A stretch of DNA of 64,000 nucleotides from Vicinamibacteria bacterium (GTDB taxonomy: Bacteria > Acidobacteriota > Vicinamibacteria > Marinacidobacterales > Marinacidobacteraceae). A program made the position numbers and the translations under genes. Location: NCBI GenBank assembly GCA_965116805.1, contig OZ220713.1:703887-767886 (forward strand), given 5' to 3'. This document shows positions 27,300 through 29,927 of the stretch, one piece after another (position 1 is the first letter of the stretch; every line of letters starts with the position of its first letter). The notes under the pieces were generated by a model that saw only the letters and a list, made by a program, of their open reading frames with translations, made no database searches and was not told where the DNA came from.

Positions 27300-29763
27300 C
27301 CAGGTTGGAAACGTTCAGGGCGTTCTTCTCGATGAACGCGCGCCGGGGCTCCACCTGATCCCCCATCAGGGTGCTGAACAGCTCCGCCGCGTCGAGGTCG
27401 TCTTCGACCTGCACCCGCTTCAGGCTGCGCACTCCCGGGTCCATCGTGGTGTCCCAGAGTTCTTCGGCGTCCATTTCGCCAAGTCCCTTGTAGCGCTGGA
27501 TCTTGAGGTGGCGGCGGGCGCTGTCGAGCAGGTGATCCAGCAAAGCGCCGGCGGATTCGAGCTCGCACTCGAGGCTGGAGGCGGGCGGGGCGCCCGCGCC
27601 GTTCACGAAGACACGAATGGGACGCGTGTCGAACCCGCGGATCTGCTCGTACAGCGCGACCAGCCGGCGGTACTCCCCGCGCTCGAAGAACGGACTGCCG
27701 AAACGGCGGGTGAAGGCCTGGCCGTCCCCGGACTGGACGGGTTCGATCACGAAGCGCCGTGGTGATCCGGCTTCGGCCACCACCCGCGCCGGTGAGCCGG
27801 CTTCGGTCAACCGCGCCGCGAGGTCGTCCATTTCACGGCGGGAAGCCGTGATTTCGCTCCCGCTCCGGCCGCGGAGCAGCCACAGCGCCAGATTCCGCGG
27901 ATAGCCGCGGCGCTCCGATGCGTCCAGACGCTCCCGGACCTGGCTCAGGCGCCGGACGCTGGCGAGCAGTTCCTCTCCCGAAACGTCCGCCTCTCCCGTG
28001 GACACCGTTCGCCCGGCCACCGACCGTTCCAGCAGGTAGGCGTTGAGCCCCCGGTCATTGAGGAAGTGCTGGTCCGGCCGGCGTTCCGACTTCGGATGCT
28101 CGACCCGGTAGAGCGGGGGCTCGGCAATGTAGAGATACCCGTCGTCCACCAGTCCCTTCATCCGGCGGTAGAAGAAGGTGAGCAGCAAGGTCCGGATGTG
28201 GGAACCGTCCACATCCGCGTCGGTCATGATGATGACCCGGTGATACCGAAGCGCGGTCAGGTCGAGTTCCGTGTCGATCCCGGCGCCCAGCGCGGAGATC
28301 AGCGCCTTGATCTCCTCGTTCTCCAGCATCCGGTTCGCCTTGGTCTTCTCGACGTTCAGGATCTTGCCGCGCAGCGGCAGGATCGCCTGGAACTTCCGGT
28401 CCCGGCCCTGCTTCGCCGACCCGCCGGCGGACTCGCCCTCCACGATGAAGAGCTCGCTCTCCCGGGGGTCGCGCTCCTGGCAGTCGGCGAGTTTTCCGGG
28501 GAGCGAGGTGGAGGCGAGCGCACTCTTGCGCCGCGCCATGTCGCGCGCCTTCCGGGCGGCTTCGCGGGCCTGGAAGGAGTCAACCACCTTGGAGACGATG
28601 GCTTTGGCCTCGCCCGGGTTCTCCTCGAAGAAGCGCACCAGTTCCTCGTAGACGAGCGAGTCCACGAAACCCTGAACGCTGCTGTTGCCGAGCTTCGTCT
28701 TGGTCTGGCCCTCGAACTGCGGCTCGGGAACCCGGACGCTGATGACCGCGGCGAGGCCGACCCGGGCGTCCTCGCCCTGGATCCGGGCCTTGAGTTCCTT
28801 CCCCAGGCGGGAAGTCTGCGCGTAGGCGTTGATGGCCCGGGTGAGCGCCGCGCGCATCCCGCTGAGATGCGTGCCTCCCTCCGGGGTGCTCACGTTATTC
28901 ACGAAGGAATGGAGCGCCTCCCGGTAGCTGCCGTTCCACTGGAGCGCCACTTCACACGAGTGCGCCCCGGAGGAAGAGCCGCCGTTCGCTGCCTCCGGGG
29001 ACTCCACCTCGAAGCTGATGACCGAGGGGTGGATCGGGTTCTCGTTGTGGTTCAGGTGCGCCACGAACTCGGAGATTCCGCCCTCGTAGTGAAAGCGGGA
29101 GCTCTGGCCGTCGCGCTCGTCCACCAGCTCGATCTCGACCCCCCGCACCAGGAACGCCAGTTCCCGTACCCGGTGGGCGATCTGGTGGAAATCGAACTCG
29201 GTGGTCTCTTCGAAGATGGTTGGATCGGGAAGGAAGTGAACGAGGGTTCCGGTGTCTTCTGGGCTCGTCTCGCCGACCGTCTCGAGGGGGCCGGTGCGTT
29301 CGCCGCGGCGGTAGGACTGCTGGTGGATCGTCCCGTTGCGGCGGACCTCCACCCGGAGCCAGGTGGCGAGCGCGTTCACGACCGAAACGCCGACGCCGTG
29401 CAGGCCGGCGGAGTACTTGTAGTTGTCGGCGTCGAACTTGCCGCCCGCGTGCAGCCGGGTCATCACCACCTCGACCGCCGGAAGCCCGGTGCTGGGCTCG
29501 GGGTCCACCGGAATGCCCCGGCCGTCGTCGCGCACCGACAGGCTGCCGTCCTGGTGGATGGTCACCTGGATGCGGCCGCAGTGACCCGCCATCGCCTCGT
29601 CGATGCTGTTGTCCATCACCTCCCGGAAGAGGTGATGCAACCCGGACTCTCCCGTGGAGCCGATGTACATCGCGGGCCGGACCCGCACGGCCTCGAGACC
29701 CTCGAGGATCTTGATGTCTCCGCCGGAGTACTGGTTCGGCGGAGTCAGTACGGTGCTGTCCAT
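27292..29763 (-). CDS. gyrB: DNA gyrase subunit B
   Basis: [53 protein letters not shown], long TOPRIM insert, RYKGLGEM. Confidence 0.98.
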
Positions 29764-29764
29764 G

Positions 29765-29896
29765 TCAACCGCCGGTGGTGGAGGTGGCGCTCTCCAAGTG
29801 ACAGGCCCCTCCTGGCGCGCTGGCGCGGCGCCGTGCGCCGCGCGTGCCGGTCTGGAGACCGGCGTTCCAAACCGGAGTCAGTACGGTGCTGTCCAT
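29765..29896 (-). other. Candidate 43-codon upstream ORF sharing the first 8 residues of GyrB
   Basis: [43 protein letters not shown]; the stop ends 1 nt before the gyrB ATG. Confidence 0.45.
29823..29868 (-). repeat. Two-hairpin REP-like element, copy 8
   Basis: Minus strand GGAAC-GCCGGTCT-CC-AGACCGGC-AC + GCGCGGCGC-ACG-GCGCCGCGC. Confidence 0.85.
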
Positions 29897-29927
29897 GCTC
29901 AGCGAACCGTGCGTGGTCGCGGACCGA

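Follow-up and report, generated by a model that had tools for sequence, protein, structure and literature searches.

In the 64,000-nucleotide stretch of a Vicinamibacteria genome analysed here (contig OZ220713.1, positions 703,887 to 767,886, hereafter the window), the beginning of gyrB is present twice, and the two copies are separated by a composite insert of 108 nt that contains one repetitive extragenic palindrome (REP) and a 58-nt tail. The upstream copy opens a small upstream open reading frame (uORF), whose stop codon lies a single nucleotide before the start codon of the intact gene. This structure is real, old and of unusual origin. The best explanation of it, in which we place slightly better than even confidence, is that a REP and its tail were inserted after codon 8 of the ancestral gyrB and that the resulting uORF serves as a relay coupled to gyrB translation.

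According to this explanation, the inserted DNA would consist of one two-hairpin REP and of about 58 nt that are probably the decayed right end of an IS5-like MITE (miniature inverted-repeat transposable element), and the insertion would have been survivable because the start was duplicated, with the downstream copy supplying an intact gyrB. The upstream copy would keep the whole native initiation region, from −31 to +24, which lacks a Shine-Dalgarno (SD) sequence and at which ribosomes most probably still initiate. Translating 40-52 codons, they would then pass the REP hairpins and reach a stop, the TGA that is separated by 1 nt from the true gyrB AUG, where termination-reinitiation coupling could start gyrB. 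As a relay, the uORF would maintain the flow of ribosomes to the displaced start and melt the hairpins on the way.

The genome that carries the window (G000) is a single contig of 3.56 Mb with about 70% GC, and the relatives with which it was compared are metagenome-assembled genomes (MAGs) of sponge-associated Acidobacteriota (Vicinamibacteria, 'Ca. Marinacidobacterium'). Coordinates are window positions unless they are given for the whole contig (C1), and the genes of the locus are read on the minus strand.

The duplicated gyrB start in the window and in relatives

A repeat search over a 600-nt region recovered the pair of 25-nt repeats (CGGAGTCAGTACGGTGCTGTCCATG) reported by the first-pass annotation, 100% identical and with a spacing of 133, and no second repeat family in that region comparable to it. 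Read on the coding strand, the repeat is CATGGACAGCACCGTACTGACTCCG, that is, C followed by ATG-DSTVLTP. Our reading of the uORF, 43 codons from the upstream ATG to a TGA that is followed by the C and the ATG of gyrB, agrees with the earlier one (Table 1). Residues 9-823 of GyrB fit positions 7-803 of the NCBIfam profile PRK14939 (1020 bits), and the downstream ATG is therefore the true gyrB start, with a canonical N-terminus. The uORF runs in a frame different from that of gyrB. The duplication covers 25 nt exactly in G000 and, by position, about 29 nt if the TGA is counted. Neither ATG is preceded by a convincing SD sequence, as had been noticed before for the real start, where GGCGG at −10 to −6 is weak and not conserved in relatives. 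The genome does use SD motifs, with a clear genome-wide peak at −14 to −9, yet gyrB is without one at both starts.

The comparison of the dnaN-gyrB spacer in relatives, which the first-pass annotation had proposed as a check, separates filled from empty sites. At least six congeners have the empty site, which is clean in six species and consists of the TGA of dnaN, 31 nt, and ATGGACAGCACCGTACTSACTCCG directly followed by CCGAAC. The filled architecture is found in four species, represented by G000, G013, G015 and G010, the last of which is a chromosome-level assembly. Among further public contigs are another filled assembly (L242), one that is broken within the REP (L243) and several additional empty sites. 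Filled sites can be aligned with empty ones base by base, and the difference between them therefore amounts to one insertion plus one duplication.

The exact identity of the two copies in G000 does not make the event a recent one. In the sister species, the copies differ by 1 nt (G013), by 1 nt (G015) or by several nucleotides and a 3-nt deletion (G010), so that the duplication is ancient and the perfect identity in G000 is secondary; judging by these differences, the upstream copy of G000 was re-homogenised or mutated back. The insertion is old, being common to at least four species and having been retained while the copies and the tail diverged. Also older than the insertion is the stop codon next to gyrB: throughout the genus, the gyrB start is preceded at 1-2 nt by a conserved stop, CTGA(R)(S) ATG (window 29898-29902), with TAG in L264. 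In the native short leaders of empty-site genomes, no ATG-initiated frame ends at this stop. A native uORF ending there was ruled out, as the frame holds no ATG.

The upstream copy, together with the 31-nt leader before it, matches the functional gyrB start region of the empty-site genomes. Because this matching sequence drives GyrB synthesis in those relatives, ribosomes should still initiate at the upstream copy. The uORF that begins there is present in all four filled species, with 43, 52, 47 and 40 codons in G000, G013, G015 and G010, respectively, and it always ends in TGA-C-ATG. The corresponding start-to-start spacings of 133, 160, 145 and 124 nt are all 1 mod 3. Behind these spacings are four indels, of 12 nt in a REP hairpin (G000), 18 nt in a modular variant of the REP loop (G013), 3 nt in the tail (G013) and 21 nt in the tail (G010), each of them a multiple of 3, and there are no indels of 1-2 nt. 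An out-of-phase uORF would overrun the gyrB start, to nt 16 for the +1 frame in G000 and to nt 809 for the +2 frame.

A different path to the same arrangement is seen in L252, a lineage of the clade to which the filled species belong; it shares their tail and their ...CTGTTGAC ATG junction but is without the REP and without the duplicated start. In its leader, a change from CACGG to CATGG creates a 22-codon uORF (MVRLTPSAEGASAARVGCNTDC) that begins with ATG and ends at the same TGA-C-ATG. Whether L252 simply derives from the filled allele by deletion was considered; the alignment can be read in more than one way, and this leader may be either a precursor or the product of a deletion of about 100 nt.

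Direct repeats that flank hairpin DNA are prone to deletion, and the repeat pair at gyrB has been retained across species-level divergence. The TGA-C-ATG of the four filled species and of L252 places the stop next to the start, as in termination-reinitiation, a process that needs an overlap or a very short gap to be efficient and of which almost nothing is left when the gap is about 20 nt (PMC10666635). By this distance rule, the 1-nt gap between the uORF and gyrB fits and the native 31-nt gap between dnaN and gyrB does not. Reinitiation after the uORF, which had been suggested in the first-pass annotation, is thus kept as the best-supported working model, on the grounds of the intact native initiation region, the 1-nt gap, the phase in four species and the uORF of L252, but the label of a decoy is not, since the geometry suggests a relay and not a trap. 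Going one step further, GyrB synthesis may now depend on this accidental relay, with selection preserving its phase and, where the duplicated start has been lost (as in L252), re-creating an ATG in frame. This further proposal is a tentative one that has about a third of our confidence.

Weighing the alternatives

The main rival, to which we give about one third of our confidence against about one half for the relay, is that the locus is a neutral scar. In that case the insertion was tolerated through the duplicated start, gyrB initiates de novo, translation of the uORF is weak or absent and without consequence for GyrB, and both the phase and the ATG of L252 are due to chance. Several results weigh on this side and against the relay. 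The first concerns the indels, for which a naive expectation of 1/3 in frame was replaced by a less favourable empirical null from 57 orthologous control intergenic spacers (480-990 kb), in which G000 was compared with G010, G013 and G015; a first null based on BLAST was too noisy for use. Multiples of 3 made up 21 of 70 gap runs in these spacers, 21 of 38 runs of at least 3 nt, and 16 of 34 non-zero net length differences. The chance of four in-frame indels out of four is then P ~0.008, 0.05 or 0.09 for a null of 0.30, 0.47 or 0.55 per event, which makes the phase a weak test, the two higher values being those for net differences and longer indels. Multiples of 3 are over-represented among the longer non-coding indels, as seen between G000 and G010, for which modular 18-nt units, triplet slippage in GC-rich DNA and unannotated translation are candidate causes.

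Other points on this side come from the frames and from the other leaders. Across the GC-rich insert none of the three frames is interrupted, so that the openness of the uORF frame is uninformative, and an in-frame ATG in an 87-nt leader, such as that of L252, has a chance probability of about 0.2. In G014 (L014), a 279-nt MITE leader precedes gyrB and contains no ATG-initiated uORF that ends near its start, and in L264, again without such a uORF, a MITE ends 3 nt before the GTG start. In view of these two cases, gyrB can evidently be initiated de novo downstream of a structured leader and with the end of a MITE as the sequence before its start. RNA folding of the four filled leaders recovered the two REP hairpins and no conserved structure that buries the gyrB AUG, and a hidden start of this kind was rejected as a candidate.

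On the other hand, a scar without function would mean that no initiation takes place at an upstream start region that matches a functional one, which would be surprising, and, provided that translation of the uORF occurs, its phase is of consequence to the overlapping start of gyrB. All four indels are in frame, with none of 1-2 nt, as opposed to 30% of the gap runs in the controls. Furthermore, a uORF arose independently in L252, and the deletion-prone repeat pair has persisted through speciation.

An effect at the level of the DNA or the transcript is improbable, and would take one of two forms: the REP hairpins might bind gyrase or else extrude under negative supercoiling, as an autoregulatory sensor, or they might stabilise the 3' end of an mRNA or partially terminate transcription and so uncouple the dnaN and gyrB transcripts. 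In enterobacteria, REPs bind gyrase and stabilise upstream mRNA, and by analogy this could hold here. The REP part of the insert is 97-100% identical among the four filled species, compared with 82-89% for the tail, and repeat elements have landed more than once in the dnaN-gyrB leader in this genus. However, gene conversion with the roughly 100 other copies can explain the high identity of the REP, other lineages have different elements or none at the site, and a search of the spacer gave no promoter-like site, terminator-like site or Rfam family.

An assembly artefact, in the form of a collapsed or mis-joined repeat at the REP, can be set aside with near certainty: REPs do break short-read assemblies, and L243 ends inside this one, but the same architecture recurs with lineage-specific substitutions and indels in five assemblies (G000, the chromosome-level OY821641, the k141 assemblies JAJDVI and CAYUVU, and one ENA scaffold), which include independent long-read and short-read ones. 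The contig of L243 (Logan SRR16351685), a short-read one, ends exactly inside the REP, right after the duplicated gyrB start, an illustration of how readily such loci break or go missing in short-read MAGs.

Two wider searches returned no further case. A metagenome scan for the junction pattern CCGGCKKTTGACATGGAC gave 96 matches, all of them due to chance and none with a REP or gyrB context, and when the uORF peptides were used to search proteins, the matches were all to further REP copies, translated in unrelated ORFs.

Repeat families in the insert and the origin of the duplication

Only about 50 nt of the 108-nt insert are multi-copy, and they correspond to one canonical REP unit. The identification as a REP made in the first-pass annotation is borne out by about 105 genomic copies of the core AACGCCGGTCTCCAGACCGGCACGCG with at most 4 mismatches, and by about 120 BLAST hits to it in G000. 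The unit begins with a left end, (C/A)CGGCTTGG, followed by the hairpin GCCGGTCTCCAGACCGGC, a second, variable GC-rich hairpin and a tail; tandem arrays of it are frequent. It is a short, GC-rich, imperfect palindrome with two conserved hairpins and many copies, as expected of a REP. At gyrB, the last base of the repeat is also the first of GGYTTGG, the canonical left end, which had been described as beginning 4 nt further on. Two genes for a Y1_Tnp domain (PF01797) score above the cut-off (G000 C1 3215045-3215275 and 3342954-3343184, both on the minus strand) and are candidate REP-associated tyrosine transposases (RAYTs), which are IS200/IS605-like and whose genes typically have REPs on their flanks; for the first of the two, there is a REP copy at a distance of about 250 nt (3214801).

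REPs are expected to be extragenic and to lack a target duplication, whereas the copy at gyrB interrupts the ancestral gene behind its codon 8 and has the 25-nt duplication on its flanks. A flanking direct repeat of at least 10 nt is absent in 91 of the 105 copies, and where long ones do occur, in a few copies, they are tails that recur within an array, a consequence of tandem arrays with a period of about 122 nt. Long duplications were accordingly rejected as a general trait of the family. The other REP copies, which the first-pass annotation had proposed to check for flanking duplications, do not show them; because none of the 104 others has one, the 25-nt duplication is not a REP target-site duplication. 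What remains of the insertion scar with a long target duplication that was proposed earlier is an insertion and a flanking duplication, evidenced by the empty sites, in which the inserted DNA is a REP plus 58 nt of non-REP sequence. Mimicry of a REP target by gyrB codons 2-6 was tried as well and rejected, since REPs have a weak consensus in their usual left flank, whose position weight matrix gives equally good scores to about 4% of random 16-mers. Arrays with the ~122-nt period carry a longer subtype of the tail (...CCCGGAAGAGGYGNTTYCCGCCTCGGCACGG...) and are found at G000 C1 3403983-3404350 and 3475231-3475340.

The 58-nt tail has no copy beyond the gyrB locus in the 16 genomes of the genus, and was therefore rejected as a part of the mobile unit or as a sequence present elsewhere (unique to the locus in 16 of 16). 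It has a likely source in a second family, termed MITE-X here, with about 25 copies in G000, mostly of 183 nt. The family has terminal inverted repeats (TIRs) of about 30 nt (AGCAGCCTGTGGTGAAAC.../...GTTYCACCACAGGCTGCT) and a 4-bp target duplication of the type YTAR (CTAG or TTAA), which is IS5-like; it is multi-copy, shorter than 300 nt and without a transposase, as is usual for MITEs. The last ~23 nt of the tail match the MITE-X model exactly to its terminus, with no left end; the nhmmer E-values are 0.002-0.004 for L003 and 0.2-0.4 for L001, which is weak. A clearer match of 41 nt (E = 6e-4) is given by the leader of L252, which aligns with the filled tails. Judging from these alignments, the tail is probably the decayed right end of a MITE-X.

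MITE-X copies are often located directly upstream of start codons, for example GGCTGTTAACC ATG at 3059876. Typical copies are those at G000 C1 554226-554408, 1281993-1282175 and 3059876-3060058, and none was seen inside the window. The length variants (81, 183, 201, 219 and 279 nt) are without exception divisible by 3. One 18-nt module (CCCCCACCGGGAGAACTGG) is found in the loop of variants of REP hairpin 1 and, as inverted pairs, inside MITE-X copies, which indicates that the two families share a building block. It was located in the insert of L002 (G013), in the REPs at 2056820, 2835335, 1277985 and 559806 of G000 and in the spacer of L014.

MITE-X has also entered the dnaN-gyrB leader independently of the filled species. 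A full copy lies 14 nt before the ATG in G014/L261, and the 81-nt form lies 3 nt before the GTG start in L264. The leader, which is about 1.4 kb from the dnaA-dnaN spacer, is an insertion hot spot in the genus, with lengths from 28 to 332 nt and at least four independent insertions or expansions of repeat elements (L014/L261, L264/L265, L252, L258/L262, L011/L253).

Trees of the surrounding sequence bear on the history of the filled allele. In sequence 1.2-3.9 kb from the insert, G000, G013 and G015 form a clade with 100/100 support, and monophyly of the four filled genomes is not rejected by the approximately unbiased (AU) test (p = 0.23). In the immediately flanking 2.2 kb (dnaN and gyrB), filled monophyly is rejected (AU p = 0.02), a result that finds no confirmation in the distal sequence and was not retained; the dnaN tree is concordant with the distal one. 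The conflict between the local and the distal tree is probably the result of local recombination.

The duplication is abnormal for both families, since REPs have none and MITE-X has one of 4 bp only. The filled allele resembles an empty-type allele, with the native leader and eight codons, that is joined via the REP to an L252-type allele, with the MITE fragment followed by TTGAC-ATG-gyrB. This pattern suggests illegitimate recombination between alleles, that is, the joining of an empty-type allele with a MITE-bearing allele at the same locus. Fill-in repair of a staggered break that captured filler DNA is another possible origin, and the genome does encode Ku. A simple tandem duplication followed by divergence is unlikely, as the tail is unrelated to the 31-nt leader though the split is recent.

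The locus and its place among known systems

The genes of the region follow one another on the minus strand in the order dnaA, dnaN, gyrB and gyrA, and recF is absent between dnaN and gyrB. DnaN scores below the TIGR00663 cut-off (93.8 against 137.65 bits) despite a full-length alignment.

Table 1. Features of the dnaN-gyrB region in window coordinates.
Feature	Position	Strand	Description
dnaN	29928..31052	-	374 aa; full-length TIGR00663 alignment, 93.8 bits; TGA stop followed after 31 nt by the first copy of the gyrB start
Native gyrB leader without SD (S31), 31 nt	29897..29927	-	Matches the leader of empty-site congeners; ends CTGA(R)(S) before ATG, a genus-wide motif
Upstream 25-nt copy	29873..29897	-	C + ATG GAC AGC ACC GTA CTG ACT CCG; start ATG of the uORF at 29896-29894
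uORF, 43 codons + TGA (29767-29765)	29765..29896	-	Traverses the REP and the tail; orthologues in G013, G015 and G010
REP unit	29823..29873	-	Canonical left end GGYTTGG; hairpin 2 (GCCGGTCTCCAGACCGGC) at 29846-29863; hairpin 1 at 29823-29843, 12 nt shorter in G000
58-nt tail	29765..29822	-	At the gyrB locus only, genus-wide; ends ...CCACCACCGGCGGTTGA; probably the decayed right end of the 183-nt MITE-X family
Downstream 25-nt copy	29740..29764	-	True gyrB start ATG at 29763-29761, preceded by C (29764)
gyrB	27292..29763	-	823 aa; the gyrA start overlaps the gyrB end

Among known systems, the mycobacterial interspersed repetitive units (MIRUs) (Supply et al. 1997) contain small ORFs that overlap the flanking genes in operons, according to the summary in Delihas (2011; PMC3184786). 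The gyrB locus shares with them a short, co-transcribed intergenic repeat inside an operon, the end of a small ORF that abuts or overlaps the start of the downstream gene, and the presence of empty and filled sites in relatives. MIRU ORFs, as presented there, overlap both neighbours and the units have tetranucleotide direct repeats. At gyrB, by contrast, only the 3' end of the uORF abuts the following gene, while its 5' end is derived from gyrB, being a copy of the gene's own start 31 nt after the dnaN stop; the duplication is 25-29 nt long, and the composite of REP and MITE occurs at one locus.

The likeness to REP/RAYT systems lies in the GC-rich two-hairpin unit of about 50-100 nt, in its ~105 copies, often in arrays, in the Y1_Tnp genes, one of which adjoins a REP, and in the lack of a target duplication at the other copies. 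The gyrB copy differs in its position within formerly coding DNA of an essential gene, in its junction with non-REP DNA and in its long duplication, for which REP mobilisation gives no explanation.

With termination-reinitiation coupling (Huber et al. 2019 and 2023; PMC6728339, PMC10666635), the locus shares an upstream stop within 1 nt of a downstream start that lacks an SD sequence, a geometry at which reinitiation is known to be efficient. Two real genes with a −4 or −1 overlap are the typical case, whereas the uORF before gyrB is an accidental, repeat-encoded frame whose only plausible role is the delivery of ribosomes.

Repeats that land at gene starts, such as IS5-type MITEs, the Correia and REP2 elements of Neisseria and the palindromic elements of Rickettsia (RPEs), are a further group to which MITE-X is similar, given its TIRs of about 30 nt, its 4-bp YTAR duplication, its length of about 183 nt and its insertion upstream of starts, including that of gyrB in three other lineages. 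At the gyrB locus, however, only a decayed right end of MITE-X is found, which has no evident promoter or ribosome-binding site, unlike REP2 and Correia elements, and is not an in-frame part of a protein, unlike RPEs. None of these four kinds of system combines the duplicated start of an essential gene with a repeat-encoded uORF.

The locus shows how an insertion in the first codons of an essential gene can be survived through duplication of the start, and how the leftover start could become a ribosome relay. Both the REP and the IS5-like MITE are repeat families apparently not described before, from uncultured, sponge-associated Acidobacteriota, and they have repeatedly hit the dnaN-gyrB leader by the replication origin. 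The filled, empty and partly deleted alleles in close relatives constitute a natural experiment on what a start without an SD sequence needs and on how uORF coupling arises. If the relay uORF is confirmed, this would be a natural and evolutionarily replicated domestication of a mobile-element insertion into a translational coupling device, and the output of GyrB could become sensitive to the stability of the hairpins or to ribosome traffic.

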